Positions 2,855 to 19,507 of a stretch of DNA of 25,674 nt are shown piece after piece; position 1 is the first letter of the stretch; each line of letters starts with the position of its first letter. Source of the stretch: Vicinamibacterales bacterium (GTDB lineage Bacteria; Acidobacteriota; Vicinamibacteria; Vicinamibacterales; 2-12-FULL-66-21); contig DASPFV010000150.1 in NCBI GenBank assembly GCA_035620975.1, positions 1 to 25,674 on the forward strand, given 5' to 3'. A program made the position numbers and the translations under genes. The notes beneath the pieces were generated by a model. The model was given only the letters and a program-made list of their open reading frames with translations, searched no databases and was not told the DNA's origin.

Positions 2855-2905
2855 GGCGCTCGGCACGCCCGCGGCCGCGGACGTTTAACCGCCGATCGTA
2901 CCATG

Positions 2906-2984
2906 CCACGGACCCACACGGAAGGGGCCACGGACGAACACGGCTCCACACGGAAGGCGGCCACCGACGAGCACGGCGAGGGGG
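2906..2984. repeat. Degenerate copy (forward orientation) of the dispersed CACGG-motif repeat family: CCACGGACCCACACGGAAGGGGCCACGGACGAACACGGCTCCACACGGAAGG...
   Basis: Seen directly. It contains the 16-mer CCACGGACGAACACGG, which is identical to 17441-17456. It is intergenic, upstream of uvrB. Confidence 0.7.
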
Positions 2985-3164
2985 CGTTCCAAACGCTCGC
3001 CGCGGAGCAGCAAGCACTGCCCGCCGCAAATGCGGCGCATCTCGCGCCGGTCTCGAGCATGCTCGGCTTTGTGTGCCAAGTGCGTCCGGCCGTCCGTCAT
3101 CTTCGTAATCTTCGCGTCGGGATCCTCATTTCAGGTAGGGGGTCAGTTTTCAAAACGGCCGACG

Positions 3165-3195
3165 TTGACACAATGGCGCACGGTGTAAGATGGCG
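3165..3195 (+). promoter_or_regulatory. Possible sigma70-like promoter for the VOC gene (TTGACA ... TAAGAT). A perfect 11-bp palindrome GTTTTCAAAAC at 3147-3157 lies just upstream and is a candidate operator.
   Basis: Hexamers read from the sequence in the AT-richer stretch 3100-3310. The spacing is about 15-16 nt, which is sub-optimal. Confidence 0.3.
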
Positions 3196-3310
3196 GGCCG
3201 AGCCTTCCCGAACGAGCAAAAATGAAACCGAAGAGCATCGACACCACGCCGCCGCGGCTGAAAAGTCCCACCGGTGGTCAACGAAGGTTGTTTCTAGGAC
3301 GGGCATCGCG

Positions 3311-3718
3311 ATGAAGCCGCGAGTGACCTCTCTCGCGCCGCAGTTCCTTGTCGATGACCTTGAACGCTCGATCGCATACTACAAAAAGCTCGGTTTTACG
3401 TTCGGCGAACCATGGGACGGTTTTTACGCCATCGGCGAGTTGAACGGACTGGAACTCCACCTAAAGGAAGCACCCCACAACCAGGCGGAGCGTCGCTGGC
3501 GGCGCGACTGTGAGCATCTTGACGCCTCGGCCGGCGTCGACGGCATCGAAGCATTTTACGAACAGTGCGTCGCCAACGGCGTCACGATCATCAAGGCGCT
3601 TGCTGGGACGGCCTGGGGGACGAAGGACTTCTATATCGAGGACCCCGACGGCTACATCATCTCCTTCGGCGGCAGCCCAGCGGCCGGGCCGTTGGAATCA
3701 CGCAGGGAGTCAAGCTGA
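3311..3718 (+). CDS. VOC (glyoxalase / bleomycin-resistance / dioxygenase) family protein, about 135 aa
   Basis: Translation MKPRVTSLAPQFLVDDLERSIAYYKKLGFTF...GTKDFYIEDPDGYIISF is the typical paired beta-alpha-beta-beta-beta VOC fold signature. An AGGA lies about 11 nt upstream. GC content and third-codon-position usage are visibly lower than in neighbouring genes. Confidence 0.8.
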   Translation: MKPRVTSLAPQFLVDDLERSIAYYKKLGFTFGEPWDGFYAIGELNGLELHLKEAPHNQAERRWRRDCEHLDASAGVDGIEAFYEQCVANGVTIIKALAGTAWGTKDFYIEDPDGYIISFGGSPAAGPLESRRESS

Positions 3719-3875
3719 CCGACCACCATGGCTCAGCGTTTCACTGCGGGCTGCTCTGGCCCCCTGACCATCTTGGGAAATGCGGTTCAGCCCTTCGGGT
3801 CGAGGCACAACGGGTCAGGATGATCTCTCCGCTGGCCCAGTGCCCTGCCCAGTCGTAATCCGCACGCCTGCTCTG

Positions 3876-3948
3876 TCCGTGTCTCGTCCGTGTTCTTCCG
3901 TGGCGTGGTGTGGCGTGGTGTCCGTGTCTCGTCCGTGTTCTTCCGTGG
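3876..3948. repeat. Two copies of the 27-mer CCGTGTCTCGTCCGTGTTCTTCCGTGG separated by CGTGGTGTGGCGTGGTGT. This is the reverse-orientation member of the CACGG-motif repeat family.
   Basis: Seen directly. It is intergenic, between the convergent VOC and VWA genes. Confidence 0.8.
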
Positions 3949-3960
3949 CCTGGCGCGGGG

Positions 3961-4881
3961 TCAGTGGCCCCCTTCGCGATACGGCGCGAAGTAGCCGGCC
4001 CGCGTCCGCAGCTTCGCCTGGCGCAGCTCGGGCCGCTTGAGGCGGATCTTGACGTCGCGCCACGATCCGTCGAAGCGCGTGTCCGACGAGATGTAGCCGA
4101 GGCTGTACCGCGCGCTGATCTCCCGCTGGATCGACTCGTAAATCCTGTCGAGCTCCTTGACGCTCGTCGGGAAGAACGCCTGTCCGCCCGTGGCGCCCGC
4201 GATGCGCTGCAGCTGCATCCGGGCCTCGTTCTTCGCCGAACTGGAATAGCGCTCCAGGTAGCCGATGGCGTAGAGCGTGACGTCCGACGCCTTCAGGAGG
4301 TCGAGCAGATCCGAATAGGTCAGCGAGCTGCGCGTATCCCCGCCGTCGGTGTACACCAGCAGGATCTTCTGTCCCAGCTGCGAGGCGGCGCCGTTCAAGT
4401 ACACGCCCAGCGCGTCGTAGAAGGCCGTCCAGCCGTCCGGCTTCCGCATCCGGATGCGCTCGATCAGCCGCGCGTACTCGCCCGACGAGTACCGCGCGAC
4501 GCGCACTTCCGTGTCGAAGTCGACGAGCGTGACGTCCACGGCCGTCGTGTTGGCGTTGAGGAACTTGACGACCGCCGAGCGGACGACGTGGATGTCCTTC
4601 TCCATGCTCCCGCTCGTGTCGAGCGCCAGGCCGAGGTGCAGCGGCAATGCACCGGCCTGGGGCCCGTCGTCACCCGCCGTGAAATAGCGGACCGCCTGCG
4701 CCTTGCCTTCCTCGAGGACCTCGAAGTCCTCGACCGAGAGGCCGGTCACGGGCGTGCCCTGCTTGTCAGTGACGACCACGGCGAAGTGGACGAGATCCAC
4801 GCCGGCGCGAAACGGCTGCTGCGCAGCTGGCGCCGCGACGGCGATCACCGCGGCCACGGAAAGCAGCATCGCTGAGCGCAT
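3961..4881 (-). CDS. Secreted von Willebrand factor type A (VWA) domain protein. ATG at 4881 gives MRSAMLLSVAAVIAVAAPAAQQ, a signal peptide. A longer GTG start at 4908 is possible.
   Basis: The translation has a signal peptide followed by a VWA domain with a MIDAS-like DTSGSM motif (LALDTSGSMEKD) and a C-terminal extension. Confidence 0.75.
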   Translation of the reverse strand: MRSAMLLSVAAVIAVAAPAAQQPFRAGVDLVHFAVVVTDKQGTPVTGLSVEDFEVLEEGKAQAVRYFTAGDDGPQAGALPLHLGLALDTSGSMEKDIHVVRSAVVKFLNANTTAVDVTLVDFDTEVRVARYSSGEYARLIERIRMRKPDGWTAFYDALGVYLNGAASQLGQKILLVYTDGGDTRSSLTYSDLLDLLKASDVTLYAIGYLERYSSSAKNEARMQLQRIAGATGGQAFFPTSVKELDRIYESIQREISARYSLGYISSDTRFDGSWRDVKIRLKRPELRQAKLRTRAGYFAPYREGGH

Positions 4882-5009
4882 AGGCCCCCCCGGATTCCGG
4901 CACGACACGGCCGGCGTCGCATCGGGTCATGATACGCGGATCGGCGCCTGCGGGTACCCCCGTGGCGGGCCCGGCGCAGCCGCCACGCCGCTTCCGTCGT
5001 ATAATGGGA

Positions 5010-6493
5010 TGTTTCGGCCATGGAAAGCCTGCGGACTGCGGGATCCGGCGAAAGGCTCGACTGACGTGCGCGTCTTCGCCTTCTGTCAGGACGAGCTCCT
5101 GATTCGCTCCCTGCAGGACGTGCTGCTGCCCAGCTTCGACGTGGACTTCCTCGTGGAGAGCGCCCCGCTGGCGCGCAAGCTCCACGACGCCGGCCTGCCG
5201 GTCATCACCGGCGACCCCCGCCGCGTCGATACGTACCTGAAGGCCGATATCTCCCCGAGCACCTGCTTCATCCTCGAAGACAACGGACGGCGGACGCTGC
5301 GCAAGGTCCTGTCGGCCATTCGCGACGCCGGCGGCACGCTGATCTATGTCGTCCACACGGGCCGGCGGCCTGCGCGCGCCTCGGAGGCCGCGCGCGCGGC
5401 CATGCCCGACGTGCTCCACATGGACCTCGCCGAGCTCATCCGCCCGACGCTCGTCCCCGAGCTGAGCCGCTCGATGACGCGCGCGCGCGTCCAGCAGTAC
5501 CAGCGGTACTTCGCCGACGCGGATCGCGTGCTGATCCTGCTCCACAACGATCCGGATCCCGACGCGCTGGCGAGCGGCCTGGCGCTGCGGAACCTGCTTC
5601 GCCGCACCAAGACCACGGCTATCATCGGCGCCATGCAGGGGGTCACCCGGCCCGAGAACCTGCGCATGGCCAACATGCTCGACATCCACGTCGAGCAGAT
5701 CACGCCGGCGTCCTTCGAGGAGTTCGAGCGAATCGCCACTGTCGACGTGCAGCCCCACTACTTCGGCGGCCTGCTGTCCCGGGCCGACCTCGTGATCGAC
5801 CATCACCCCGAGCAGCCCGGCTACAGCGCCGTCTTCAAGGACATCCGCGCGGACTACGGATCCACCTCGACGATCCTGACCGAGCATCTCCGGGCCGTGG
5901 ACGTGAACATCTCGGAGCGCACGGCGACCGCCATGCTTTACGCGATCAAATCGGACACGCTCTTCTTCGCGCGGCACACCAACCGGGTGGATCTCGAAGC
6001 GTTCACGTTCCTGTACCCGCTCGCCGACGCGGCGCTCATCCGCAAGATGGAAGGAGCGGAAATCACGCTCGAACGGCTCGACTACGTGACCCGGGCCAGC
6101 CAGGGCGGGATCCTGCGGGAGCAGGTGTTCAGCGCCTTCATCGGCGAGGCCCCACGGGAGGACTTCATCCCCTACACGGCCGACTTCTTCCTGCAGCTCG
6201 AGGCCGTGAAGTGGACGATCGTGGCCGGAGTGGTGGGAGGATCGCTCATCGTGAGCGTCCGCAACCTCGGCTACTCGCGCAACGCCGGGGAGTTCGTCAG
6301 GCGGTGGTTCGGCGACATCGGCAGCGCCGGGGGCCACCGCTCGATGGCCAAGGCCGTCGTCCCGATGGAGAAATTCCGCGAGAAGTTCGGGGACCTGTCA
6401 GGGCCGGCGATTACGGCGCGGATCGCGGAGATCGCCGGGCAGTTCCTCCACGAGCCGGCGGCCGAGAAGCGGCGCGACTACGCCAAGGCCTGA
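5010..6493 (+). CDS. DHH/DHHA1 family phosphoesterase (NrnA-like) with an additional ~170-aa N-terminal Rossmann/KTN-like domain. The start is uncertain: ATG at about 5010 or GTG at about 5066.
   Basis: DHH motifs LLHNDPDPDA and VIDHHPEQPG are present, plus a DHHA1 region with a GGH motif (GSAGGHRSMAKA). The N-terminal region shows a VFAFCQDELL...DFLVESAP...GLPVITGDP pattern. TATAAT lies immediately upstream of the 5010 ATG. Confidence 0.8.
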
Positions 6494-7638
6494 TCCAGGT
6501 CGGCAATCAGGTCTTCGGGATCCTCCAGCCCGACCGACAGGCGCGCCATGCTCGGCGTGACGCCCGCCCGCTGGAGCTCCTCTTCCGAGTGCCCCCATTG
6601 CGACGTGAGCACGGGCAGACTGCAGAGGCTCTCGACCCCGCCGAGGCTGGCGGCGCGACGGAAGACGCGCAGACGGTCGAAGAACCGCGCGGCGCGCTCG
6701 TACCCGCCGCCCAGGTCGATGCAGATCATGCCGCCGAAGCCGCGCATCTGCCGGCGGGCTACGTCGTGATCCGGATGTGACGGCAGCCCCGGATAGTAGA
6801 CCGTGTGGAGCCGCCGGTCACGGCCGAGCCACTCGGCAACGGCCTGGGCACTCGCGTTGTGGCGCTGCATGCGGACCGCCAGCGTCTTCAGGCCCCGTCC
6901 CAGCGCGTAGGCCGCCGAGGGGTCGAGCACCGTCCCGAGCAGCTTGCGCGCCTCGAGCATGGGCGCGAGGTGCCGCGACGACCCCATCAGGACGCCCGCG
7001 GTCACGTCGCTGTGTCCGTTGAGGTACTTCGTGGCGCTGTGCATGACCACGTCGACGCCGAGCGCGATGGGCTGCTGGTTGATGGGGCTGGCGAACGTGT
7101 TGTCGATGACGGAGATCACTCCGCGGGCGCGGCAGGCCGCAGCCACCGCCGCCACGTCCACGCACCGCAGCGTGGGATTGATCGGGGATTCGAACCAGAG
7201 GAGCCGCGTCGACGCCGAGCAGAGGCGGTCGGGCTCCGACAGCTCCTCGAGCGTCACGAAGCGCGCCGCCACGCCGAACTTCGGCAGTAGATCCGCCATC
7301 AGATGAAGGGTGCCACCGTAGATGGCCGACCCGCACACGATCTCGTCGCCCGACCGGGCGAGCGCCAGCAGCGCCGTCGTGGTCGCGGCCTGGCCGCTCG
7401 AAAGCACGAGCGCCGACTCCGCTCCCTCGAGCGCAGCCAGCGTGTGCTCCACTTCCATCACCGTCGGGTTCGCGTAGCGCGAGTAGAGGAACTTCCCCGA
7501 GCGCCCCTCGTTGTACTCGCGCACCTGGCTGGCGCTGTCGAAGACGAAGGTCGTCGTCTCGTAAATGGGCGTCGTGAGCGGTGCCGCGTCGCGGCTGACG
7601 GCGTCTGTGCGCTGAACGAGATCGGTGGACGGTTTCAT
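6478..7638 (-). CDS. PLP-dependent Cys/Met-metabolism enzyme of the cystathionine gamma-synthase / methionine gamma-lyase family, 386 aa
   Basis: Translation MKPSTDLVQRTDAVSRDAAPLTTPIYETTTFVF... has the PLP-lysine motif SATKYLNGHSD. A GGAG RBS sits 8 nt upstream of the ATG at 7638. The 3' end overlaps the convergent DHH gene by 16 nt. Confidence 0.85.
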   Translation of the reverse strand: MKPSTDLVQRTDAVSRDAAPLTTPIYETTTFVFDSASQVREYNEGRSGKFLYSRYANPTVMEVEHTLAALEGAESALVLSSGQAATTTALLALARSGDEIVCGSAIYGGTLHLMADLLPKFGVAARFVTLEELSEPDRLCSASTRLLWFESPINPTLRCVDVAAVAAACRARGVISVIDNTFASPINQQPIALGVDVVMHSATKYLNGHSDVTAGVLMGSSRHLAPMLEARKLLGTVLDPSAAYALGRGLKTLAVRMQRHNASAQAVAEWLGRDRRLHTVYYPGLPSHPDHDVARRQMRGFGGMICIDLGGGYERAARFFDRLRVFRRAASLGGVESLCSLPVLTSQWGHSEEELQRAGVTPSMARLSVGLEDPEDLIADLDQALA

Positions 7639-7700
7639 CGGCTGCTCACTCCGGACTGCGGGCGAGTCTACCGCCCCGGCGAGCCCGCCGGGTCTCCAAT

Positions 7701-9152
7701 TCAGCGGTGGACCGCCTCCGTGCGCTCGGCGCTGCCCGCCACGATCGGCTCGATGAACTGGCGGTAGGCGTCCTCGTAGCCCCGATCGAGCTGTTCGCCG
7801 AGCGTGTGCACCCGATCCGACCGCTCGTCGTAAATGCCGGCGAAATCGAGCGGGCCGAGCGGGTTGTGCAGGGGGCGGATGACGAACAGCCCGGCGTAGC
7901 GGCCGGCGGCGTGCTCGACGACGTCGCGGAGCGCTGCGGCCTCGAAGCTGGCCAGCTGTTCGGCGGCGTAGCCCCGCAGATCCGCGCGGCCGGCGCTGAG
8001 CTCGTGGGGTCGGCCTGCGGCCGGCGTGGCCGCCGCGAGGATAATCTGCTCGGCGCCGGCGGCGGTGACCTCTTCGATGACGCGCGCGAGCGAGCCCGGA
8101 CGATCGCAGAGCCGGTGCGACTCGCCCCGCCACGGGCCCTCCGGCGCGAAGTGCACCAGGTGGGGCTCGGTGCCGATGGGAAGCGCGAGCGAGGCGATCA
8201 CCGCGTCGAGCGCGTGGTCGCGGGCCACACCCGTCAGATCGAATGCCTCGACGGCCCGCGCCGCCGTGTCAGGTGCCTGGCGGTTGAAGAACCGCCCCCG
8301 GTACGGGCCTCCCAGCAGCGCGAAGACGAGATCGCGCCGCGCATCGAGGTCGTGGACGATGATGAGCAGCTCGCGGAACCCGGGCTGCCCGAGGTTCTCG
8401 GTCAGCAGGTCGATGAAGCGCCGGGCCAGCTCGGCGCGCGGCGGCGCGCCGAGCGGGGCCGCGCCCCGAATCAGGTTCCACAACTCCGAGGTGCACCGCT
8501 CGGCGAGGGATGCGGCCGCGAGAGGACCACCCAGCACGCGGCCGGCCAGCCCCCGCTGCGCCCGGCGCCTCCCGCCCCCGCGCCGGGACGGCAGCAGCGT
8601 CGTGAACCCCGCCGCAATCGCGACGAGCACTGCCAGCAGGGCCAGGCGCGGGATCACGGTCGGCAGCGCGTGCGGCGCGAACGCCGCCGCAATCACACGC
8701 GCGTACCCGCCCGCGATCGCGGTTCCGGCTCCGGTCAGCCCCACGAAGGTGAGGATCATCCCCGCCATCGCGGCGATGACAGCGGCGACCAGGAGGACCA
8801 GGGGCACGGCGACGATGGCCCCCGCAGCGACGACGCTCCATCCGGCGGCGCGAAGGGCGGGCCGCCACGCGTAGTACTTCTGCGATGCCGCGCCGCGCCA
8901 CAGACCGCCAGGCTCCCACAGGCGGGCCCCGCCATCCATGGCGGCGAACGCCGCGCCCACAGACCCAATCCCCCGGGCCGCCACGAGATCGATCCGGATG
9001 CCGGCTTCGTGCAGGGCCCGCAGCACGCCCGCGTGATACGCGCCGGCGGTCCCCGTGCCGGTGAGCACGAGCGCCGTCCGCAACCGGGTGGAATACTGAC
9101 GATCGGGACTCTCGGGGGTGACGGCCACGGCAGTCAACGGGAGCGCTGACAA
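7701..9152 (-). CDS. Membrane-associated patatin-like phospholipase family protein. The start is uncertain: TTG at 9152 or a downstream GTG.
   Basis: A glycine-rich oxyanion motif (LVLTGTGTAGAYHAG), a GxSxG-type nucleophile (RGIGSVGAA) and a DGG/A catalytic Asp motif (MDGGARL) are present. Several predicted TM helices follow. Confidence 0.75.
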   Translation of the reverse strand: MSALPLTAVAVTPESPDRQYSTRLRTALVLTGTGTAGAYHAGVLRALHEAGIRIDLVAARGIGSVGAAFAAMDGGARLWEPGGLWRGAASQKYYAWRPALRAAGWSVVAAGAIVAVPLVLLVAAVIAAMAGMILTFVGLTGAGTAIAGGYARVIAAAFAPHALPTVIPRLALLAVLVAIAAGFTTLLPSRRGGGRRRAQRGLAGRVLGGPLAAASLAERCTSELWNLIRGAAPLGAPPRAELARRFIDLLTENLGQPGFRELLIIVHDLDARRDLVFALLGGPYRGRFFNRQAPDTAARAVEAFDLTGVARDHALDAVIASLALPIGTEPHLVHFAPEGPWRGESHRLCDRPGSLARVIEEVTAAGAEQIILAAATPAAGRPHELSAGRADLRGYAAEQLASFEAAALRDVVEHAAGRYAGLFVIRPLHNPLGPLDFAGIYDERSDRVHTLGEQLDRGYEDAYRQFIEPIVAGSAERTEAVHR

Positions 9153-9171
9153 CGGCGGGACAGGACGGCCA

Positions 9172-9636
9172 TCATTCGTCGTGAATCGTGAGCAGCTTGA
9201 CCAGCTCGAACCGCTTGCTGCCGAGCGGCGTCTGGACGGTGACCTCGTCCCCCTCTTCCTTGTTGATCAGCGCACGACCGATGGGGGACGCCGTCGAGAT
9301 CAGTCCGCTCTCGACGTCAGCGTCCTCCGGCATGACGAGCTGGTAGACGATCACTTGATCGGCTTCGCCCTTGAGGTGCACGGTGGAGCCGAACGCGGCG
9401 CGATCCTTCGGCAGCTTCTCCAGGTTCATCAGAGCGATTTCGCTGACGCGCTTTTTCAGGAGGCTGATCCGCGACTCGACCAGGCGCTGGCGCTCCTTGG
9501 CGGCATGGTACTCGGCGTTCTCGCGCAGGTCTCCCAGCTCTCGCGCGCGCCTGATCTCCTGCGGCAGCTCCTTCTTGAGCTCCTTCTCGAGCTGCTGGAT
9601 CTCGTCCTCGAATTTCTTCAGTATCTGCGCCTTCAT
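9172..9636 (-). CDS. greA: Transcription elongation factor GreA, 154 aa
   Basis: MKAQILKKFEDEIQQLEKELKKELPQEIRRARELGDLRENAEYHAAKE... is the canonical GreA N-terminal coiled-coil, followed by the FKBP-like C-terminal domain. An AGGA RBS lies upstream of the ATG at 9636. Confidence 0.9.
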   Translation of the reverse strand: MKAQILKKFEDEIQQLEKELKKELPQEIRRARELGDLRENAEYHAAKERQRLVESRISLLKKRVSEIALMNLEKLPKDRAAFGSTVHLKGEADQVIVYQLVMPEDADVESGLISTASPIGRALINKEEGDEVTVQTPLGSKRFELVKLLTIHDE

Positions 9637-9650
9637 CGCCGCTGATCCTA

Positions 9651-9780
9651 GCACGGCCGCGGACACACACGGCCACGGAAGAACACGGCCACGGAAGAAC
9701 ACGGCCACGGAAGAACACGGCCACGGAAGAACACGGAAGAACACGGCCACGGAAGAACACGGAAGAACACGGACATACAA
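9651..9780. repeat. Tandem array of the CACGG-motif repeat family: the 16-mer CACGGCCACGGAAGAA four times, then mixed 10-mer (CACGGAAGAA) and 16-mer units, ending ...CACGGACATACAAT
   Basis: Seen directly. The units abut one another with no unique spacers. The array lies in the divergent intergenic region between greA (-) and the trmH-family gene (+). Confidence 0.9.
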
Positions 9781-9781
9781 T
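9776..9781 (+). promoter_or_regulatory. Perfect -10-like hexamer TACAAT formed by the 3' terminus of the repeat array, 8 nt before the GTG start of the methyltransferase gene. Implies a leaderless or near-leaderless transcript.
   Basis: Seen directly. There is no obvious -35 element; the tandem repeats occupy the upstream region. Confidence 0.35.
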
Positions 9782-9789
9782 ACTCGTCT

Positions 9790-10584
9790 GTGGAGCGCGT
9801 CTCGAGCCGCCACAATCCTCTCGTCAGGGAGTTCCGCGCGCTGGCGCGCTCGGGCGGGCGGGACGGCCGCGTGCTGCTCGACGGCGAGCACCTGCTGACT
9901 GAAGCGCTCGCGAGCGGCGTGGACGTGGAGGTCGCGGCGGCGCTCGACGGAGCCCTGCCCGAGCGCATCGTGCAGGACCTTCGGTCGCACGGTACACGGG
10001 TCATCATCATCGCGCCGGCAGTCCTGGCCGCGGTGAGCCCCGTGCGCCAGCCGTCCGGCGTGGTCGCCATCGCGCGGCTTCGTTCCACCGCCCTGTCGGG
10101 CGTGATGGAGCGTCCCCCGCAGCTCGTGCTGCTGCTGGCCGGCGTTCAGGATCCCGGGAACGTCGGCGCGATCGTCCGCGCCGCCGAGGCCTGCGGGGCG
10201 ACGGGTGTGGTGTGTACGGCCGGCTCGGCCGATCCCTTCGGGTGGAAGGCCCTGCGGGGGTCGATGGGCAGCGCGCTGCGCGTGCCGATCGCGTCGAAGG
10301 CCTCCGCGGACGCAGCGCTCGAGACGGCGCGCGCGTACGGCCTGGCGCTCGTTGCAGCCGTCCCGCGGGGCGGGACGCCACTGCCCGTGTGCGACCTGCG
10401 GCCGCCGGCGATGATCCTCCTGGGCGGAGAGGGTCCGGGACTCACCGGAGCCGCCCTGCGAGCCGCGGATGCGCGTGTGACAGTTCCGATGCGCGCGCCG
10501 GTCGAATCCATGAACGTCGCGGCCGTGGCGGCCATCGTGCTCTACGAGGCGGCCCGCCAGCGCGCGGGCGAAGGGATCGCATGA
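9790..10584 (+). CDS. TrmH/SpoU-family RNA 2'-O-methyltransferase (RlmB-like), GTG start
   Basis: The SpoU_sub_bind-like N-terminus (SRHNPLVREFRAL) and SPOUT motifs (LLLAGVQDPGNVGAIVRAAEACGA; ILLGGEGPGL; ESMNVAAVAAIVLYE) are present. The stop overlaps the rarA start (ATGA). Confidence 0.85.
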   Translation: MERVSSRHNPLVREFRALARSGGRDGRVLLDGEHLLTEALASGVDVEVAAALDGALPERIVQDLRSHGTRVIIIAPAVLAAVSPVRQPSGVVAIARLRSTALSGVMERPPQLVLLLAGVQDPGNVGAIVRAAEACGATGVVCTAGSADPFGWKALRGSMGSALRVPIASKASADAALETARAYGLALVAAVPRGGTPLPVCDLRPPAMILLGGEGPGLTGAALRAADARVTVPMRAPVESMNVAAVAAIVLYEAARQRAGEGIA

Positions 10585-11867: not shown

Positions 11868-11875
11868 CAGGAGGC

Positions 11876-11897
11876 AGCGTCGGCAGACTGCCAGCGC
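11876..11897. terminator. GC-rich imperfect hairpin GGCAGCGTCGGCAGACTGCC between the convergent rarA and protease genes. Possible bidirectional terminator with no U-tract.
   Basis: Inverted repeat read from the sequence. Weak. Confidence 0.2.
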
Positions 11898-11905
11898 GGA
11901 GGCGG

Positions 11906-12784
11906 CTACTGTTTCAGGTGCTCGACCTTCCGGAACATCTCGGGCCTGAGCGGCAGGATGAACGAGAAGCGGTAATCCCCCTGCATCCGGCCGATGGGAA
12001 TGCCCACGAGCTCGCCTTCGCGGTTCAGGACGCCGCCGCCGGACACGCCCGGGTGTCCGTCAGTGAGGCACGTCACCAGCTTGTTCGATGTCTTCTGGCC
12101 CACGTAGCCGGTCGACAGGATGATGCCCTTCGAGTAGTCGTTGCCCAGCCGGAAGATGGGATCGGCGAAATCAAAGCCGTACGCCAGATTGGTGTTCAGG
12201 GCCGGCAGATCGATCGGCTCCTTCACCTTCACGATCGCCCAGTCACCCGGATCGACTTCGACCCTGGCGTCGCCGGCGTCGACGACGCGCGCGTTCAGGA
12301 GGCGGCCCCCGTACATCAGTTTCACCGAGACTATCCGGCGGGGGTCCGTGAGGCCGTCCTGGCCGAGCGCGACCACGCCGTGCTTGACGGTGATGAAGTA
12401 GCCGGCGCCGAGGTAACCCGCCGTGCCGTAGCTGCTCGAGCCACGGTCATCGTAGGAGTACAGCTCGACGAAGCTCTCGCGCCGCTCCCGAAGGAGGTTG
12501 AGCGGCAGGAGGCCCATCTCGTCCTGCAGCTGGCGTTTGATGTCGGCCACGAGCGCGGCGCGGTTGGCGTCGGCGACGGCGACGGCCGGCGGAGGCGTGT
12601 CCGTGTGGCCGGCGGTTCCCGTGCTGTCCGCCTGCCGCCGCTTCAGCAGAGCAATCTCGGCGCGGAGGGCGGCCAGCTGCTGATCGCTGTCGGCATTGCG
12701 GGCGCCGAGAAAATTCCCCAGGCCAAAGAAGACCAGCGCACAGACCGTGGCGATGACTGCAGGAACGGCGCGACGAGTAGACAT
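11906..12784 (-). CDS. Membrane-anchored trypsin-like (S1/chymotrypsin family) serine protease: N-terminal TM helix, a coiled-coil segment and a protease domain
   Basis: The active-site Ser motif is CLTDGHPGVSGGGVLNREGELVGIP, where GDSGG is replaced by GVSGGG. A GGAG RBS lies 8 nt upstream of the ATG at 12784. Confidence 0.75.
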   Translation of the reverse strand: MSTRRAVPAVIATVCALVFFGLGNFLGARNADSDQQLAALRAEIALLKRRQADSTGTAGHTDTPPPAVAVADANRAALVADIKRQLQDEMGLLPLNLLRERRESFVELYSYDDRGSSSYGTAGYLGAGYFITVKHGVVALGQDGLTDPRRIVSVKLMYGGRLLNARVVDAGDARVEVDPGDWAIVKVKEPIDLPALNTNLAYGFDFADPIFRLGNDYSKGIILSTGYVGQKTSNKLVTCLTDGHPGVSGGGVLNREGELVGIPIGRMQGDYRFSFILPLRPEMFRKVEHLKQ

Positions 12785-12910
12785 GGCGACTCCAAGTTCG
12801 GCAGCTAAACCACCCCGCGCGAGCGGGGCTTACAGCTTTGCGCACCCCCGATGAGGGGGTTGCCTTTTCGCTTGGAAAAAGTTACAGGCCCGAGTTGCTG
12901 GGATAGAAAA

Positions 12911-12939
12911 ATTGTAGGGAGCAGCCCTGAAAGAGTCAA
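12911..12939 (-). promoter_or_regulatory. Sigma70-type promoter on the minus strand: -35 TTGACT (12939-12934), 17-bp spacer, -10 TACAAT (12916-12911). It drives the serine protease gene through a ~120-nt leader.
   Basis: Consensus-quality hexamers with ideal spacing, seen directly in the AT-richer intergenic region 12785-13026. Confidence 0.5.
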
Positions 12940-13026
12940 GGGTAAATCTTGCGCGGTCAGCCGGTTATGGATGAGTTCGCGGCCCTGCACGCCGGTGCGT
13001 GCCCGTGCGCCGGCCCCTCCCGTGCG

Positions 13027-14601: not shown

Positions 14602-14613
14602 GGGGACCTCGGA

Positions 14614-15153
14614 CTAGTGTCTCCTGACGACGACGACCTCCCCGAGCACCTCCTCGACCCTGACAGAAGCGTGCTCGGGGATCGTCTGCCCATCGTGGGC
14701 ACGGGCAATCTTGTCGATCAGCTCCTCGCCGAGGCGACAGCGAACCTGGCCGACGCCATCGGCGGGAATCGTCACGATCACGCGGGCCGTCTGCCCGACG
14801 AGCTCCGCGGCCCGCACTTCAGAGCTCGCCTGCTGACCATAGAGGAACCGCGCGAACGCGTAGACGGCGCTGCCGAACGCGAGGCCGCTCGCGAAACCGA
14901 CTCCGGAGGCCGGCAGGGGCGAGAGCCCGTAGTGCGTGGCTATCGCACCGAACCCGCCGAACGCCGTGATGAACACGCTGATCACCCGCGAGCTGAAGAA
15001 GCCCGGCCCGCCGTGATCCAGGTCGTGGTCGAGGCTCGCATCGAAGAAATCGAAGATGCCTCCGAACACGAGCGAAATCAGGAGCAGGGCGAACCCAAGA
15101 CCGCCAATCACGAGGAAGACCGTGAAGGCGCTCAGCGAGGAGAGGAATGCCAT
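14614..15153 (-). CDS. nfeD: NfeD-family membrane protein (flotillin partner), 179 aa
   Basis: The N-terminal half is polytopic and hydrophobic; the C-terminal half is an OB-fold-like soluble domain. The gene sits 12 nt upstream of the flotillin gene, the classic nfeD-floT arrangement. Confidence 0.8.
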   Translation of the reverse strand: MAFLSSLSAFTVFLVIGGLGFALLLISLVFGGIFDFFDASLDHDLDHGGPGFFSSRVISVFITAFGGFGAIATHYGLSPLPASGVGFASGLAFGSAVYAFARFLYGQQASSEVRAAELVGQTARVIVTIPADGVGQVRCRLGEELIDKIARAHDGQTIPEHASVRVEEVLGEVVVVRRH

Positions 15154-15177
15154 TCCACCGGTTCAGGGAGTGTGCTC

Positions 15178-15206
15178 ACTCTAGGGAACACTCCGACGGA
15201 AGTCAA
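15178..15206 (-). promoter_or_regulatory. Sigma70-type promoter for the nfeD-flotillin operon: -35 TTGACT (15206-15201), 17-bp spacer, -10 TAGAGT (15183-15178). The inverted repeat GGGAGTGT...ACACTCC (15166-15193) overlaps the -10 region.
   Basis: Seen directly on the reverse complement of 15154-15247. Confidence 0.45.
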
Positions 15207-15247
15207 ATGCCGCATGGCCTTCCGCAACCGGCGGCTCGGAATCCGCC

Positions 15248-17413
15248 CTACTTCGCGAGCGGGTCCGGCCGGAGCTGGACCTTCATCACCTTGGGCGGCG
15301 TGCCCTTGCCCCCTTCCATATGGAACGGCGTACGCGTGCTCACGGTCGTCCACAGGCCGCGGCCCTTCCAGCCCGCCTTCGGGTCGTCGATGCGGCCGTC
15401 GAGCCATTTGGTGTAGTAGCCCATCGGGTACGGCACGCGCAGCACGACCCACGCACCGTCCTTCAGCACGAGCAGGCCTTCGGACGCATTCCCGGTGTTG
15501 ATCGGCACGTTGCGCCCGAGCCCCAGCGTGTCGAACTGGTCGACCCACGTGTAGTAGCTCGCCTCCGCGCTCCCCGGATCGGTCACGCCCTTCAATTGCG
15601 GGAGCGGCTCCTGATAGAGGGTCCACCCTTCGGGGCAGTGCTGGCCCGTCGCCTTCGGCCCGTTCAGCGGACCCTTGCACTTGCGGCGGTCGAAGCTCGC
15701 CAGGTGGCCGCTCGCGAGTGCCACCCAGGCTACGCCATCGCGATCGATGTCCATTCCGCGCGGCGAGAAGCCCTGGACTCGCGCGCCCGGATTGTTGAAC
15801 GGCGGCTCGTATACTTCGACGAGTGTCGTCTCCGGCGGGTTCGCGCCCGGCACCAGGCGCACGACCGCACCGGGGAAGCCCAGTACCGATCCCCAGACCG
15901 ACCCGTCGGGTGCTGGTGACACGGCGTAGAATCCTGCGCCGTACCGCTTGTCCTTTGCCGGATCGACGGGCTGGTCCGGCTCCACGTAGGCGTCACGCTT
16001 ACCGTTCCCGTTGGTATCGATGACGAGCGCCGTCCATCCCTGCGACTTCTCCTCGTCGCCGGTCTCGTCGAACATTCTCGTGTTCAGCCAGCCCACGACC
16101 TGTTGCCCGCCGCTCGTCCAGAGCGTGTGGTTCGCGTCCTCGGCAAACATGAGGTGATGCGTGCTGAAGCATGTGCTGATGTGGGTCAGCTTCTGCGTCT
16201 TCGGGTCGTAGACGGCGAGGTGGCGGCCGGCTCTCGCCAGCGGATAGAGCTGCGCCGACGGGTGTGCCGACCCTGCCTTGCAGAAATCCGGGTTGTCGGG
16301 AGGCCTGACCGTGGAGGTGATCCAGACGCGGCCCAGATGATCCAGCATCGGGTTGTGCACGTTGTTCTTGCTCGTCCAGATCACTTCCGCGCCCCAATAC
16401 GGCGATGGCTGCACCATCAGGGGCGAGGTGGGTGCGGTCGCTGGATCGCGGACCGTCAAGGGCACCCTGCCTGCTCGGTGTTGCACGGGGTCGAGCACGG
16501 GCAGGTAGTCGGCGCTCAGCTCGAGCGCGCCGTAGAGTGGGCCATCGGCGTTCAGGGTCGGGTTCCGCCGATCGGTCGAAACCAGGTCGTGGAGATAATG
16601 CCGGGGATCCGCCCAGTCCCAGATGGTGATGACGACGTTCCGCTCCAGTCCCTGCGGGCGCGGCGGCGCTGGCGGCACTTCTCCGGCGGCGATGCGGTCG
16701 GTCCAGTCAGCGAACATCGCCAGCGCGCGGTCGCGGCCGAGCGAGTTCAGCCCGTTGATCATCTGGGCGCCGGCCTGGCCGGACTGCAGGCGCCGCTCCC
16801 AGGCTGCCGTCGACGACGGGAAGACCCCCAGCTCCTTCGGAATCTCCCGCGTGCCTTTGGTACCCAGTCCATGGCACGCGGTGCACTGTCCCGACTTCAG
16901 CAACCGGAGCCACTCCGCCTGCGTCTTCAGATTGGGCGAGACGCCGTTCTCGGCCGTCCCCGGGAACTCGCTCTTGTCGGGCACGCGCATCAGCGAGAAC
17001 CAGTAGCCGGACGGATAGTACTCCGCCGCCGCACGCGGCGACGGCGCCGGGACGGCCTTCAGATCGAGGCTGCGTCCTGGCTGGACCTTCTGCCTGGGCG
17101 AATCCACGAGGCCGTAACCGCGTACCCACACCTCATAGCTGGCCTTCGGGAGGTCCGGAACCAGGTACCGGCCGCGATCATCGGTCACCACGATCCGCGC
17201 GAACTTCGTCGGCAGATCCGTGGTCTCCGCGATCACCCACACGCCGGCTTCCGGTCCTTGTGGACCGGAGACGACGCCGGTGATGTCGTCCGGGTCGACT
17301 GGAACCTGAGCCCCGGATCCCTGTCCGCGGAGCGCCGTTCCCGAGATCATCAGGCCTCCGCCGCAGGCTGCTGCCACGAGCGCCGCCGTTGCCATCCTGG
17401 TCATTCGACGCAT
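15248..17413 (-). CDS. Secreted 722-aa protein with an N-terminal CarboxypepD_reg-like domain and a single CXXCH heme-binding motif (c-type cytochrome-like), followed by a large uncharacterised domain
   Basis: A signal peptide MRRMTRMATAALVAAACGGG is present. The CarboxypepD_reg-like stretch is VVTDDRGRYLVPDLPKASYEVWVRGYG, and the CXXCH motif is KSGQCTACHGLG. A strong GGAGGGAAG RBS sits upstream of the ATG at 17413. The ORF-track N-terminal extension, 17414..17527, runs through the repeat element and was rejected. Confidence 0.7.
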   Translation of the reverse strand: MRRMTRMATAALVAAACGGGLMISGTALRGQGSGAQVPVDPDDITGVVSGPQGPEAGVWVIAETTDLPTKFARIVVTDDRGRYLVPDLPKASYEVWVRGYGLVDSPRQKVQPGRSLDLKAVPAPSPRAAAEYYPSGYWFSLMRVPDKSEFPGTAENGVSPNLKTQAEWLRLLKSGQCTACHGLGTKGTREIPKELGVFPSSTAAWERRLQSGQAGAQMINGLNSLGRDRALAMFADWTDRIAAGEVPPAPPRPQGLERNVVITIWDWADPRHYLHDLVSTDRRNPTLNADGPLYGALELSADYLPVLDPVQHRAGRVPLTVRDPATAPTSPLMVQPSPYWGAEVIWTSKNNVHNPMLDHLGRVWITSTVRPPDNPDFCKAGSAHPSAQLYPLARAGRHLAVYDPKTQKLTHISTCFSTHHLMFAEDANHTLWTSGGQQVVGWLNTRMFDETGDEEKSQGWTALVIDTNGNGKRDAYVEPDQPVDPAKDKRYGAGFYAVSPAPDGSVWGSVLGFPGAVVRLVPGANPPETTLVEVYEPPFNNPGARVQGFSPRGMDIDRDGVAWVALASGHLASFDRRKCKGPLNGPKATGQHCPEGWTLYQEPLPQLKGVTDPGSAEASYYTWVDQFDTLGLGRNVPINTGNASEGLLVLKDGAWVVLRVPYPMGYYTKWLDGRIDDPKAGWKGRGLWTTVSTRTPFHMEGGKGTPPKVMKVQLRPDPLAK

Positions 17414-17427
17414 CGGCTTCCCTCCGC

Positions 17428-17490
17428 CACGGAAGAACACGGACGAACACGGTGCCACGGAAAAACACGGACAAACACTGACAGATACAA
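17428..17490. repeat. Forward-orientation copy of the CACGG-motif repeat, CCACGGAAGAACACGGACGAACACGGTGCCACGGAAAAACACGGACAAACACTGACAGATACAA. It directly abuts the RBS of the cytochrome-like gene.
   Basis: Seen directly. Its terminus ...CACGGACA.ACA...ATACAA is shared with the array at 9651-9780. Confidence 0.85.
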
Positions 17491-17615
17491 GAGGCCGGAG
17501 GACCTGGAACTCTGCGCCGGCACTCACCCTGAGGTCGAGCGATCGAGCCGGTTGGATCAGCCGGAGTATGCCACGTAATCCTCCAGGCGGGTGTCCTCGA
17601 CCTCCGGATCTGAAT

Positions 17616-17734
17616 CCGTCCGTGTCCGTCCGTGTTGTTCCGTGGCCTCAACGTCCGTCCGTGTTCTTCCGTGGCCTCAACGTCCCGTCCGGGTTGTTCC
17701 GTGGCCTCAACGTACGTCCGTGTTGTTCCGTGGC
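17616..17734. repeat. Reverse-orientation tandem array: about 4 units of ~30 bp (CCGTCCGTGTTCTTCCGTGGCCTCAACGT). It runs up to and overlaps the mutL stop codon.
   Basis: Seen directly. Together with 17428-17490 it forms an inverted-repeat pair around a 125-bp core. Confidence 0.85.
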
Positions 17735-19507
17735 TCAAATCCGCTGGAAGTTGCGCTCGATCTCCCGGCGCGTCATCCGCAGGACGACCGGACGGCCGTG
17801 CGGGCAGACGCTGGAATACGCCGTCCGTCTGAGCTCGTCCAGGATGTAGCGCATCTTCGCGAGCGTCAACGGGTAGTTCGCCTTCACCGCGGCGTGGCAG
17901 GCCATCGTCGCGGCGATTCGGCGCAACGCATCTTCCACGCGCGAGCCGCCGTCGAGGCCTTCGAGGTCGTCGGCCAGCGCGCGGATCGCCGCCTCGCAGT
18001 CGGCGGGCTCCAGTATCGCGGGCACGGCGACGAGGCGGAGGCTGTTGCCGCCGAACTCCTCGACCTCGAGGCCGAACCGGTCGAGGGTCGAGTTGTGCCG
18101 CGCGACCACCTGACGCTGCGCGGGCGAGAGCTCGATCAGGATGGGGGTCAGGAGCCGCTGGCTCTCGAGCCGGCTGGCGGTCAGCTTCTCCATCATCTGC
18201 TCGAACAGCACCCGCTCGTGTGCCACGTGCTGATCGACGATCGCGACCCCCTCGTCGTCCACGGCGATGATGAACGTGTCGCGGAACTGCCCCAGGGGGA
18301 TCATCGGGCGGATGTCGGCCGCGGAAACGGCCGGGGCGACGCCGCCAGTGGAGCCCTCCGGCAGCGCGTCCGCCGGCGCTGTGCCGGCGAACGCACGGAA
18401 CGCCGCGTCGTGCTCGGCGCTCCACCGGCTCCCGACCGACGCGCCGGACAGGACCCCCGGCAGCGGCGCGGCGCGCGGCGCGTCCGCTCGCGCGGCGAAC
18501 GGCGTGAACTGCAGCTCGGGGACGCGCCCCTGCCCGAGCGCCTCTCCGAGGGCCCGGCGCAGCACCTCGTGCACCAGCGACTGTTCGAGGAAGCGGACTT
18601 CGGCCTTGGTCGGGTGTACGTTGACGTCCACGCGGTCCGGCGCCAGCTCGACGAAGAGGTGCACTTCCGGGCTGCGTTCCTTGATGGTCGCCACCGTGTA
18701 CGCCTCACCGATCGCGTGCGCGATCGTCCGGTCGCGCACGATGCGCCGGTTCACGAAGACGTTCTGGGCTCCACGCACGGGCCCTTCGTCGCCCAGTGCC
18801 GCGATGTAGCCGTGCAGGCGGATGCCGCCCGCCTCCTTGCGCACCTCGATCAGATCGGGGCGCTCGCCGAAGAGCTGGAAGAACCGCTCGGCGAGGCCGC
18901 GGGCAGGCGGGCACTCGAGCAGGCGGCGGGAACCGCTCGTCAGCGTGAACCCGATCTCGGGATAGCCCAGGGCGAGCTGGGTCACCAGTCGTGAGACCTG
19001 GGCTGACTCCGCCGTGTCCGACTTCAGGAACTTGCGGCGCGCCGGCAGGTTGTAGAAGAGGTCGGCGACGTCGATGCAGGTTCCTTCCGGCGCCCCCACT
19101 TCGCGCTCGGAGGTGACCGTACCGCCGCTCACCCGGATCTCGGTCCCGCTCGCCGCGCCTCTCGCCCGGCTGCGGAGCACGAAGTGAGACACGGACGCGA
19201 TGCTCGGGAGCGCCTCCCCTCTGAACCCGAGCGTTCGAATCGCGGCGAGATCCTCGGGTGAGGCGATCTTGCTGGTTGCATGCCGCTCGATGGCGAGCCG
19301 CGCGTCGTCGGGCTCCATGCCATCGCCATCGTCCTCGACCCGGATGAGCTTCTTGCCGCCGAATTCGATGACGACGGCAACACGGCGCGCGTGAGCATCG
19401 AGCGCGTTCTCGACCAGCTCTTTGACGACCGACGCCGGACGCTCGACGACCTCGCCGGCGGCTATCTGATTGGCCAGGTGCGGCGGCAGGCGGTGAATCA
19501 CAGCCAT
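17735..19507 (-). CDS. mutL: DNA mismatch repair protein MutL, 590 aa, starting at MAVIHRLPP
   Basis: The GHKL ATPase N-terminus is LPPHLANQIAAGEVVERPASVVKELVENALDA, with transducer and C-terminal dimerisation domains. The ATG at 19507 overlaps the corA stop. Confidence 0.9.
   Translation of the reverse strand: MAVIHRLPPHLANQIAAGEVVERPASVVKELVENALDAHARRVAVVIEFGGKKLIRVEDDGDGMEPDDARLAIERHATSKIASPEDLAAIRTLGFRGEALPSIASVSHFVLRSRARGAASGTEIRVSGGTVTSEREVGAPEGTCIDVADLFYNLPARRKFLKSDTAESAQVSRLVTQLALGYPEIGFTLTSGSRRLLECPPARGLAERFFQLFGERPDLIEVRKEAGGIRLHGYIAALGDEGPVRGAQNVFVNRRIVRDRTIAHAIGEAYTVATIKERSPEVHLFVELAPDRVDVNVHPTKAEVRFLEQSLVHEVLRRALGEALGQGRVPELQFTPFAARADAPRAAPLPGVLSGASVGSRWSAEHDAAFRAFAGTAPADALPEGSTGGVAPAVSAADIRPMIPLGQFRDTFIIAVDDEGVAIVDQHVAHERVLFEQMMEKLTASRLESQRLLTPILIELSPAQRQVVARHNSTLDRFGLEVEEFGGNSLRLVAVPAILEPADCEAAIRALADDLEGLDGGSRVEDALRRIAATMACHAAVKANYPLTLAKMRYILDELRRTAYSSVCPHGRPVVLRMTRREIERNFQRI

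Follow-up and report, generated by a model that had tools for sequence, protein, structure and literature searches.

Outward-facing pairs of CACGG arrays form an apparently undescribed family of intergenic, REP/MITE-like repeats in distant bacterial phyla

Tandem arrays of CACGG sub-units in a 25,674-nucleotide stretch of acidobacterial DNA from the order Vicinamibacterales (the window) belong to a family of intergenic REP/MITE-like repeats that is apparently undescribed. The true unit of this family is a pair of inverted arms with GCCACGG tips pointing outward, and the window contains three elements (E1, E2, and E3; Table 1) rather than five copies. Members of the family follow a polarity rule, lie between genes, are absent from syntenic relatives, have tips that coincide with insertion boundaries, change in copy number by whole units, and are distributed across phyla.

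We searched both strands of the window for CCACGGAAGAACACGG, allowing up to two mismatches, and obtained 17 matches, compared to 0.03 expected from shuffled sequences. Arrays were defined by clustering of CACGG/CCGTG pentamers, which returned exactly five, at the places given by the initial annotation; TRF assigned periods of 10, 16, 26, 29, and 32 bp at the same coordinates. The five arrays account for 39 of the 150 CACGG/CCGTG pentamers of the whole window, and Pfam annotation of the window places all of them between genes. One strand of the repeat unit lacks T and the other lacks A, which precludes a stop codon in every frame, and open reading frames that seem to cross the arrays are thus artefacts.

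Table 1. Arrays, elements, and adjoining host features in the window.
Feature	Position	Strand	Description
Array 1	2907-2976	+	6 cores (pentamer clustering)
Array 2	3877-3947	-	6 cores (pentamer clustering)
Array 3	9652-9772	+	14 cores (pentamer clustering)
Array 4	17428-17470	+	5 cores (pentamer clustering)
Array 5	17620-17732	-	8 cores (pentamer clustering)
uvrB extended -10 box TGGTACGAT	2895-2903	-	host feature at E1 edge; common to L231-L234
E1	2905-3949		1,045-bp block bounded by inverted arms (comparison with relatives)
E1 left arm	2905-2984	+	outer tip GCCACGG at 2905-2911; 6 CACGG cores, ~32-bp units
E1 cargo, VOC/glyoxalase-family gene	3311-3718	+	GC3 0.74 versus 0.92 in neighbouring genes
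E1 right arm	3876-3949	-	outer tip CCGTGGC at 3943-3949; 6 cores
greA extended -10 box TGCTAGGAT	9645-9653	-	host feature; conserved in L122 and L123
E2	9652-9772	+	solo array with 14 cores (units of 16 and 10 bp); occupies the whole greA-spoU divergent spacer
spoU -10 box TACAAT	9776-9781	+	host feature; conserved in relatives
E3	17426-17734		complete 309-bp element; folds as one long hairpin
E3 left arm	17426-17490	+	tip GCCACGG at 17426-17432; 5 cores by pentamer clustering
E3 spacer	17491-17615		unique sequence; small terminator-like hairpin 17505-17492, minus strand
E3 right arm	17616-17734	-	four 29-bp units, 8 cores; tip CCGTGGC at 17728-17734

The architecture of the family emerges from 120 sequences. 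The arm is modular, opening with the tip GCCACGGAA; CACGGA cores then follow at intervals of one helical turn. The consensus of the tip is GC followed by CACGGAA, and the GC is present in ~90% of arms. As first proposed, the family is a dispersed intergenic one with CACGG sub-units at helical spacing: successive cores lie 10 bp apart in 112 of ~190 cases within the Acidobacteria, and outside them 266 of ~310 distances are 9 or 10 bp. Neighbouring arrays no more than 300 bp apart are arranged “+ then -” in 73 cases and “- then +” in 2 (binomial p = 1.5e-19); the two exceptional cases fall where elements adjoin in tandem. This strict polarity replaces the initial picture of equivalent copies in random orientation. 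The interior between paired arms is variable (15-250 bp) and occasionally comprises a whole gene. A terminus thought to be shared by the forward copies is only partly genuine: CACGGAC(A/G) is indeed a common inner end, whereas ATACAA belongs to the -10 box of the host gene spoU. In Marinobacter we found variant modules with co-varying cores, CGCGG and CACGA, the latter without GGA.

Phased protein-binding sites are the best reading of this sub-structure, with binding suggested by the pattern of the arms. Inter-core identity is 0.77 within an element versus 0.72 between elements, the two arms are in the same register in only 16 of 68 pairs, and complementarity is lacking at inter-core positions. 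Arms track the family consensus and not their own partner, which favours sequence-specific recognition over hairpin stability. The three-unit form (CACGGAAGAA)3 is a suggested bait for the putative binder.

Strongly structured DNA, the other reading first offered, does not apply to single arrays: single arms fold no better than shuffled sequences (z 0 to +1.5), the MFE of a 31-nt consensus arm is 0, and only inverted pairs fold (z -7.85 and -11.5), with E3 reaching -168.5 kcal/mol as RNA (z = -7.85). The strong folding of complete elements raises the question of a role at the RNA level, in which long hairpins formed by transcribed pairs would terminate transcription or would serve mRNA processing (as RNase III sites) or stabilisation (by 5′ or 3′ protection). 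Two window arms do lie after stop codons in sense orientation, and elements show a mild preference for convergent and tandem gene contexts (38 tandem, 18 convergent, and 7 divergent, with divergent promoter regions mildly avoided). Also in keeping with such a role, in the orthologous acidobacterial loci L117 and L112 the array makes up the entire spacer between stop codon and ATG, with the last GGA at Shine-Dalgarno distance from the start codon. Nevertheless, we regard this explanation as improbable. Consensus scans detected neither a hairpin plus U-tract terminator nor a promoter within the arms, and the flanks of Marinobacter elements, with a T-run before and an A-run after, have the opposite order to a terminator. 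Lying upstream of -10 boxes, E2 and the E1 left arm are probably untranscribed, and solo arrays are mixed relative to co-directional neighbours (14 sense, 8 antisense). Most pairs are out of register with non-complementary inter-core positions, and there is no Rfam match. In a variant of the RNA-level explanation, a protein that recognises GGA, such as CsrA, might bind CACGGA arrays in single-stranded form, as ACACGGAAGA would fit the published consensus (A/U)CANGGANG(U/A). We rejected CsrA/Rsm sites, given arrays upstream of -10 boxes, their mixed orientation, the GGA hidden in pair stems, and the variants without GGA.

Evidence for insertion comes from E1, between VWA and uvrB. In relatives at 80-81% VWA identity E1 is missing, and the two genes are adjacent across a gap of 222-248 bp that holds the conserved uvrB -10 box, also present in the window. 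The E1 block sits exactly between this box, which the left arm directly adjoins, and the VWA stop codon (3961-3963), 11 nt from the right tip. Since VWA and uvrB are adjacent in the relatives, the tips of E1 coincide with the ends of inserted DNA. We did not find a target-site duplication at E1, where the flanks read ACCAT on the left and CTGGC on the right. Copies of the enclosed glyoxalase gene with 87-90% DNA identity occur in four other, unrelated contexts, all without arms, and their homology ends ~25-35 nt beyond the open reading frame. Movement of arms and gene as a single cassette was rejected on these grounds. A TTGACA...TAAGAT pair upstream of the gene was discarded as a promoter (15-nt spacer, not called by the scan). 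Gene-carrying pairs number two, the other being a pair at L053 that encloses a PDDEXK_3 gene, and both interiors are compositionally foreign.

E2 has its tip side toward greA. Its first CACGG (9652-9656) is host sequence, part of the conserved greA promoter word CCGTGCTAnnAT. On the other side, the spoU -10 box, 8 nt ahead of the GTG start, is outside the repeat, and ATACAA near 9776-9781 is also present in relatives without the array. In relatives at 80-81% GreA identity the spoU-greA spacer measures only ~55-90 bp and has no array, and degenerate TCCGTG-like words are present in these array-free spacers. From these sequences, E2 may have arisen by in-situ expansion from a seed word. Short-read contigs with identical greA end within the E2 array, as a multicopy sequence would cause.

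E3 occupies the interval between mutL and the CarboxypepD_reg gene. Its left arm immediately precedes the latter's ribosome-binding site and start codon (17413), and its right tip abuts the mutL stop codon (17735-17737). Relatives carry a 159-aa gene in place of E3; because the site holds a different gene, it does not provide a precise empty-site comparison.

The syntenic comparison anticipated in the initial annotation thus yielded absence: the window elements are missing from relatives at 80-85% protein identity, and ~69 kb of syntenic sequence from relatives contains 5 phased core pairs, compared to 21 in the window. Contrary to the absence elsewhere that would have refuted the initial annotation, the arm occurs far beyond this genome: a 16- to 30-nt module, with the same 16- to 20-mer, is present in at least six bacterial phyla, with Gammaproteobacteria and Acidobacteriota among them. 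The density of extra arrays is 1 per 15 kb in Marinobacter; in other acidobacterial MAG loci it is 1 per 124 kb, no higher than the 1 per 103 kb of chance controls, and the hundreds of copies first implied are at most a conjecture for the source genome. Intergenic location holds for 122 of 128 elements, and in 29 of 40 solo arrays the tip side is the one closer to a gene (p = 0.006). The arm was not found among 72,556 plasmids, and E. coli genomes gave no match. We rejected a phage-borne origin, as all 20 of 20 viral matches were single in-frame coding matches, which served as a control. Rfam covariance models, applied to the window and eight loci at gathering and permissive thresholds, gave only spurious sub-threshold miRNA-hairpin matches, and the literature searched contained no description of this repeat family. 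The early impression that it is not a described REP, BIME, or MITE family therefore stands. Several further leads (MraZ GTGG repeats, LexA GTTC-N7-GTTC, the sigma-54 -24 box, DnaA boxes, and the RNase P CR-V region) were discarded for misfits of spacing or sequence.

Could the arrays be neutral mini- or microsatellites, produced by independent slippage of short GC-rich seeds and neither mobile nor functional? Whole-unit variation in copy number at orthologous sites (4.5 versus 1.5 units of 31 bp in L117 and L112, with flanks ~88% identical) would be expected, as would several unit lengths within one window, the host-derived CACGG at the edge of E2, and the seed-like degenerate words in relatives. 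However, slippage cannot give an identical module in six or more phyla, and it leaves unexplained the 73:2 polarity, the constant GC tip, and the location of tips where 1 kb of foreign DNA begins and ends. We consider this explanation very improbable and strongly disfavour it.

The explanation we judge best, at about even odds of being correct, is that the arrays are the arms of a non-autonomous REPIN/MITE-like element, with putative phased binding sites and expansion by slippage. Two inverted arms, tips outward, would bound a variable interior. The phased cores would present sites on one face of the duplex to a multimeric, trans-encoded protein, most likely a recombinase or transposase that mobilises the element. 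Insertion would take place into intergenic DNA without target-site duplication, after which arms may gain or lose whole units by replication slippage or unequal exchange, the proposed cause of the 10-, 16-, 29-, and 32-bp periodicities. Solo arrays would be half-elements. Against this explanation, we found neither a recurrent transposase nor a target-site duplication, and plasmids and phages supplied no vehicle for spread across phyla. In the flanks of 73 elements there was no direct repeat, no transposase or other protein family recurred beside the elements across the 120 sequences, and no parental IS or transposon with matching ends was detected in the loci examined, the 72,556 plasmids, viral contigs, or E. 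coli genomes. As for a RAYT-like or transposase neighbour, the PDDEXK_3 gene between the L053 arms is a single case, and this candidate was set aside.

Among known systems, REP sequences and the REPIN-RAYT system, mobilised by RAYT tyrosine (HUH Y1) transposases, offer several likenesses. They are short intergenic repeats in high copy; two inverted copies around a spacer of variable length form the unit, and singlets resemble remnants; target-site duplications and an internal transposase are absent; and elements persist for a long time at orthologous sites. Clustering in intergenic regions is shared with REP/BIME. On the other hand, a REP is an imperfect palindrome of 20-40 bp, whereas a single CACGG arm is non-palindromic, does not fold, has no GTAG or CGTC tag, and consists of direct pentamer repeats at helical spacing. 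REPs are species-specific, while the CACGG arm is common to several phyla, and no RAYT gene, which in that system is single-copy and flanked by the repeats, was seen among the 120 sequences. Spacers at gammaproteobacterial loci often hold classical GTAG REPs, which are sequences separate from the arms.

MITEs such as Correia of Neisseria, and ERIC, likewise are intergenic, non-autonomous, hairpin-forming elements of 80-310 bp with terminal inverted repeats, MITEs being by definition non-coding and 50-500 bp long, and the occasional passenger genes between ends (glyoxalase; PDDEXK_3 in L053) recall mobile insertion cassettes. CACGG elements differ in having no target-site duplication, no conserved interior in long elements, and terminal inverted repeats that are themselves tandem arrays of variable length; a parent IS with matching ends was looked for without success in loci, plasmids, and phages. 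A MITE with a conserved body was rejected: neither spacers nor interiors of the window elements match any other sequence, and longer elements share no internal sequence. The pneumococcal BOX (A-Bn-C), mycobacterial MIRU, and cyanobacterial STRR repeats are comparable in that unit number varies between orthologous loci and in their modular organisation between operon genes, sometimes filling the stop-to-start gap (as in L117/L112); the CACGG family has another sequence, a shorter core period of 10 bp, strict inverted polarity, and cross-phylum spread. As no more than a working analogy for the way in which arms may be recognised, multi-site transposon ends (Tn7 TnsB, Mu L1-3/R1-3, IS21, Tn402) and arm-type integrase sites (lambda P'1-3) have several protein-binding sites in direct repeat at each end, with the ends inverted. 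In those systems the sites are ~20 bp long, ends start with TG, the target is duplicated, and the genes for the enzymes lie between the ends, all features unseen in CACGG elements.

Some elements are retained at the same site across species (L012/L033 in Marinobacter, L117/L112 in Acidobacteria), and long residence or a host function fits this as well as mobility does. The arrays may accordingly be viewed as host cis-elements at the DNA level, not mobile today, with phased sites for a conserved chromosomal protein, nucleoid-associated or regulatory, that recognises direct repeats at helical-turn spacing, and proposed roles as architectural, decoy, or promoter-upstream sites. In line with this, retained arms are better conserved than linkers, the 9-10 bp phasing of cores is conserved rather than arm complementarity, cores are near-identical across phyla without a plasmid or phage vehicle, and two window arrays are immediately upstream of the uvrB and greA extended -10 boxes. 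Yet absence from syntenic regions at 80-85% protein identity is unexpected for a conserved host function. The neighbours are unrelated housekeeping genes with no shared theme, elements of either orientation are found between genes as well as at 3′ and 5′ ends, and the CGCGG and CACGA variants of Marinobacter would imply several cognate proteins. We give this possibility a low, though appreciable, probability.

A bolder form of the mobile-element reading, which seems unlikely to us, is that a widespread but so far unrecognised DNA-insertion system uses the arms as its recognition ends, together with a trans-encoded, putative CACGGA-binding protein. If so, hairpin-forming elements, and occasionally genes between arms, would be inserted intergenically without target duplication. 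Gammaproteobacteria, Acidobacteriota, Planctomycetota, Verrucomicrobiota, and Chloroflexota would share one conserved specificity, and the CGCGG and CACGA modules of Marinobacter would represent sister specificities of the protein family.

Dispersed bacterial repeats such as REP, BOX, MIRU, and Correia are as a rule confined to one lineage, and few have a protein known to read or move them. The CACGG module of ~20-30 nt, with its simple grammar (a GC tip, then CACGGA every helical turn), is common to distant phyla and missing from close relatives. Its occurrence across phyla, its position at the ends of inserted DNA, and its absence from relatives mean that a trans-acting factor should be findable. 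In practical terms, the arrays break short-read assemblies and, being free of stop codons, inflate predictions of open reading frames. At housekeeping genes of the window, they directly precede two promoter -10 boxes (uvrB and greA) and one ribosome-binding site (the gene downstream of mutL).

The five CACGG arrays that the initial annotation had placed between genes were recovered independently. Up to two mismatches allowed, the 16-mer CCACGGAAGAACACGG has 17 matches in the window against 0.03 expected; TRF returned array periods of 10, 16, 26, 29, and 32 bp at the same five places; and clustering of CACGG and CCGTG pentamers yielded exactly five arrays holding 39 of the window's 150 pentamers, all five intergenic (Table). 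The window is an entire contig (25,674 bp, 68% GC) of a Vicinamibacterales MAG, encoding housekeeping genes (mlaE, uvrB, VOC/glyoxalase, VWA, DHH, Cys/Met PLP enzyme, patatin, greA, SpoU methylase, mgsA, trypsin-like peptidase, flotillin, nfeD, CarboxypepD_reg, mutL, corA, PPDK, and glyS). One strand of the repeat unit lacks T and the other lacks A, which makes a stop codon impossible on either and accounts for the spurious ORFs across the arrays; mechanical ORF calls cross them and over-extend gene starts (two examples in the Table, among others). Directly upstream of the trypsin-like peptidase gene, a candidate c-di-GMP-I riboswitch (RF01051; 40.2 bits, E = 8.5e-5) appeared in a permissive scan only and was not returned in gathering mode.

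Coordinates of arrays, elements, and associated features (window positions unless a locus is named)
Feature	Position	Strand	Remark
Array	2907-2976	+	CACGG/CCGTG clustering
Array	3877-3947	-	CACGG/CCGTG clustering
Array	9652-9772	+	CACGG/CCGTG clustering
Array	17428-17470	+	CACGG/CCGTG clustering
Array	17620-17732	-	CACGG/CCGTG clustering
E1	2905-3949		1,045-bp pair around glyoxalase gene
E2	9652-9772	+	solo array, 14 cores
E3	17426-17734		complete element, 309 bp
uvrB extended -10 box	2895-2903	-	TGGTACGAT
Glyoxalase gene	3311-3718	+	
greA extended -10 box	9645-9653	-	TGCTAGGAT
spoU TACAAT box	9776-9781	+	
Mechanical ORF call	9172-9990	-	crosses array
Mechanical ORF call	15248-17527	-	crosses array
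Trypsin-like peptidase gene	11906-12784	-	
Candidate riboswitch	12797-12874	-	RF01051
E3 place	17414-17734		relative's gene at L228 3305-3784
Tandem repeat	L228 3255-3304		GCTGGACGCTGGAATCTGGAAGCTGG
Tandem repeat	L229 9896-9986		33-bp unit x2.8
PDDEXK_3 ORF	L053 5637-6155	-	
Marinobacter sister modules	L012 5613-5840, L033 7284-7479, L030, L038, L003		
GTAG REP-containing spacers	L004, L023, L039, L080, L101, L106		

An exact 16-mer scan with one genome per species returned at least 119 loci. In the window and the loci among the matches listed, array neighbors up to 300 bp apart are ordered "+ then -" 73 times and "- then +" twice (p = 1.5e-19), both exceptions being tandem-element junctions in one locus (L083). 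The element is therefore GCCACGGAA...arm, spacer, arm...TTCCGTGGC, with its GC-CACGG tips outward. Spacer lengths cluster at about 25, 35, 100, 145, and 190 bp. On this reading the window's arrays form three elements, E1, E2, and E3. The E3 spacer measures 125 bp when counted from one annotated arm to the other and 147 bp when the outermost CACGGA cores are taken as its limits. On the right, the tip of E3 abuts the mutL stop codon; on the left, 13 nt separate the tip from the start of the next gene. Solo arrays behave like half-elements, since the tip side is nearer a gene in 29 of 40 (p = 0.006). The strongly structured DNA proposed initially applies to complete elements, which fold very strongly (z = -7.85 for E3, -11.5 for the element of locus L021), and not to single arms, whose folding does not exceed that of shuffles (z 0 to +1.5). 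Action at the RNA level through such a hairpin is, in our view, quite unlikely; the two arms share a register in only 16 of 68 pairs, and scans found no canonical promoter or terminator inside the arms.

The helical spacing first claimed for CACGG was borne out: cores lie 10 bp apart in 112 of about 190 intervals in Acidobacteria, and 9 then 10 bp apart in 266 of about 310 elsewhere. In about 90% of arms, the first core follows a GC. The consensus arm reads GCCACGGAATCCACGGAAGAACACGGAAAAA in Gammaproteobacteria, and the acidobacterial module, GCCACGGAAGAACACGGAnnAACACGGAT..., frequently forms tandem repeats of its own. Identity between cores averages 0.77 inside one element and 0.72 across elements of different genomes; an arm is closer to the consensus of the family than to its partner. 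These identities, with the few pairs in register, indicate that phased cores and the tip are conserved, not perfect complementarity. Phased sites might instead belong to a resident host protein-binding array, which we judge improbable, though less so than action through RNA.

At the VWA-uvrB junction (E1), relatives with 80-81% VWA identity (L231-L234) have VWA directly followed by uvrB across a gap of 222-248 bp containing a conserved uvrB extended -10, TGGTACGAT nGGCGGTTAAC. The window keeps this box, and its DNA from there to the VWA stop is the E1 block, so each tip marks one end of the extra DNA. No target duplication was found at the flanks (ACCAT before, CTGGC after). The enclosed glyoxalase gene has a GC3 of 0.74 (0.92 in neighboring genes). 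Its relatives in the database number about 4,300, many of them with 80-90% identity as proteins, and are spread over several acidobacterial classes. DNA-level copies (87-90% identity) occur in four unrelated contexts, none with arms; the relatives' neighborhoods are unrelated, with toxin-antitoxin pairs and small ORFs adjoining. Judged by these comparisons, it resembles an orphan gene that travels widely, and it either landed inside the element or arrived with the whole block; arms and cargo need not have moved as one unit, because DNA homology ends just outside the ORF and the other copies lack arms. In another Vicinamibacterales MAG (L053), the ORF between inverted arms is a PDDEXK_3 (GxxExxY-type) nuclease with a GC3 of 0.58 (0.74 in its neighbor), a single case that recalls RAYT genes flanked by REPs.

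At the greA-spoU junction (E2), the spacer in relatives with 80-81% GreA identity (L122, L123) is about 55-90 bp long, lacks an array, and retains both -10 boxes, TATTGTA and GTGCTAnnAT; the window's array sits exactly between them. Insertion and seeded expansion fit E2 alike, since the relatives' spacers hold degenerate TCCGTG-like words and the first E2 core is host promoter sequence. Two independent short-read assemblies of the window's organism (Logan SRR25158314 and SRR25158315), with identical greA, break off inside the array, 60 bp upstream of greA, which is what a multicopy repeat would be expected to cause. The greA extended -10 box is common to relatives, and the spoU box, merely 8 nt ahead of the GTG start, suggests a leaderless spoU mRNA.

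At the mutL junction (E3), relatives carry a 159-aa predicted membrane-protein gene between mutL and CarboxypepD_reg at E3's place, of which no remnant was detected in the window. Taken together, syntenic relatives have 5 phased core pairs in about 69 kb (one lacks them throughout its 21.8 kb), whereas the 25.7-kb window has 21. In two close relatives without CACGG arrays, other intergenic tandem repeats occupy comparable places, straight behind the mutL stop (L228) and between corA and mutL (L229).

Same-site elements also persist. Two acidobacterial MAGs whose flanks are about 88% identical keep an array at the orthologous site downstream of leuS, one with 4.5 copies of a 31-bp unit and the other with 1.5. 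Two Marinobacter species retain, at one shared site, an element of nested arms, the CACGG module outside and a CACGA module inside, whose arms are far better conserved than linkers and loop. That the arrays are a neutral satellite seems to us very improbable. Marinobacter also carries sister modules whose three cores all co-vary (GCCGCGGAATCCGCGGAAGGACGCGG; GCCACGAAAACCACGAAAAGACACGAAA) and which sit within or around the CACGG arms, onion-layer fashion, and GTAG-type classical REP hairpins (e.g., GTAGGGTGCGTTTTACGCACC) often lie within the spacers of gammaproteobacterial elements.

True elements (arrays or hairpins, as opposed to chance or coding matches) occur, among the matches listed, in many Gammaproteobacteria (Marinobacter, Oceanisphaera, Thioalkalivibrio, Ectothiorhodospiraceae, and numerous soil MAGs), one betaproteobacterium (Gallionellaceae), one alphaproteobacterium (Telmatospirillum), Acidobacteriota, Planctomycetota (Phycisphaerales), Verrucomicrobiota (Spartobacteria), Chloroflexota, and Thermodesulfobacteriota. 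Chance or coding matches that have just two cores make up about a third of the loci and account for all 20 viral hits; plasmids and E. coli gave no match. Additional arrays occur about once per 15-30 kb in gammaproteobacterial loci and once per 124 kb, the density of chance controls, in other acidobacterial MAG loci, making the window's lineage unusually array-rich. Intergenic position holds for 122 of 128 elements, the six apparent gene overlaps being over-extended ORF start calls. Genes around pairs are tandem (38), convergent (18), or divergent (7), and no recurrent protein family was found beside elements in the window and the loci of the scan. The family was at first not recognized as a described one, and indeed Rfam gave no match, and no description turned up in the literature searched, which took in a broad survey of REPs and a MITE survey of 183,000 genomes.

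The best-supported reading, ahead of its rivals and held with roughly even confidence, is that of a non-autonomous REPIN/MITE-like element whose arms would consist of helically phased putative binding sites for a trans-acting protein. Such an element would insert between genes without duplicating its target and then be remodeled by slippage. The element behaves like both REP/RAYT and MITE systems and resembles BOX and MIRU in variable unit number. Its single arms are non-palindromic and lack the GTAG tag, which places it outside the REP/RAYT family; nor is it a canonical MITE, since there is no target-site duplication and the search of the loci, plasmids, viral contigs, and E. coli genomes found no parent IS. 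What is unusual in the CACGG element is its 73:2 polarity, a pentamer core phased at one helical turn, and a module conserved across phyla.
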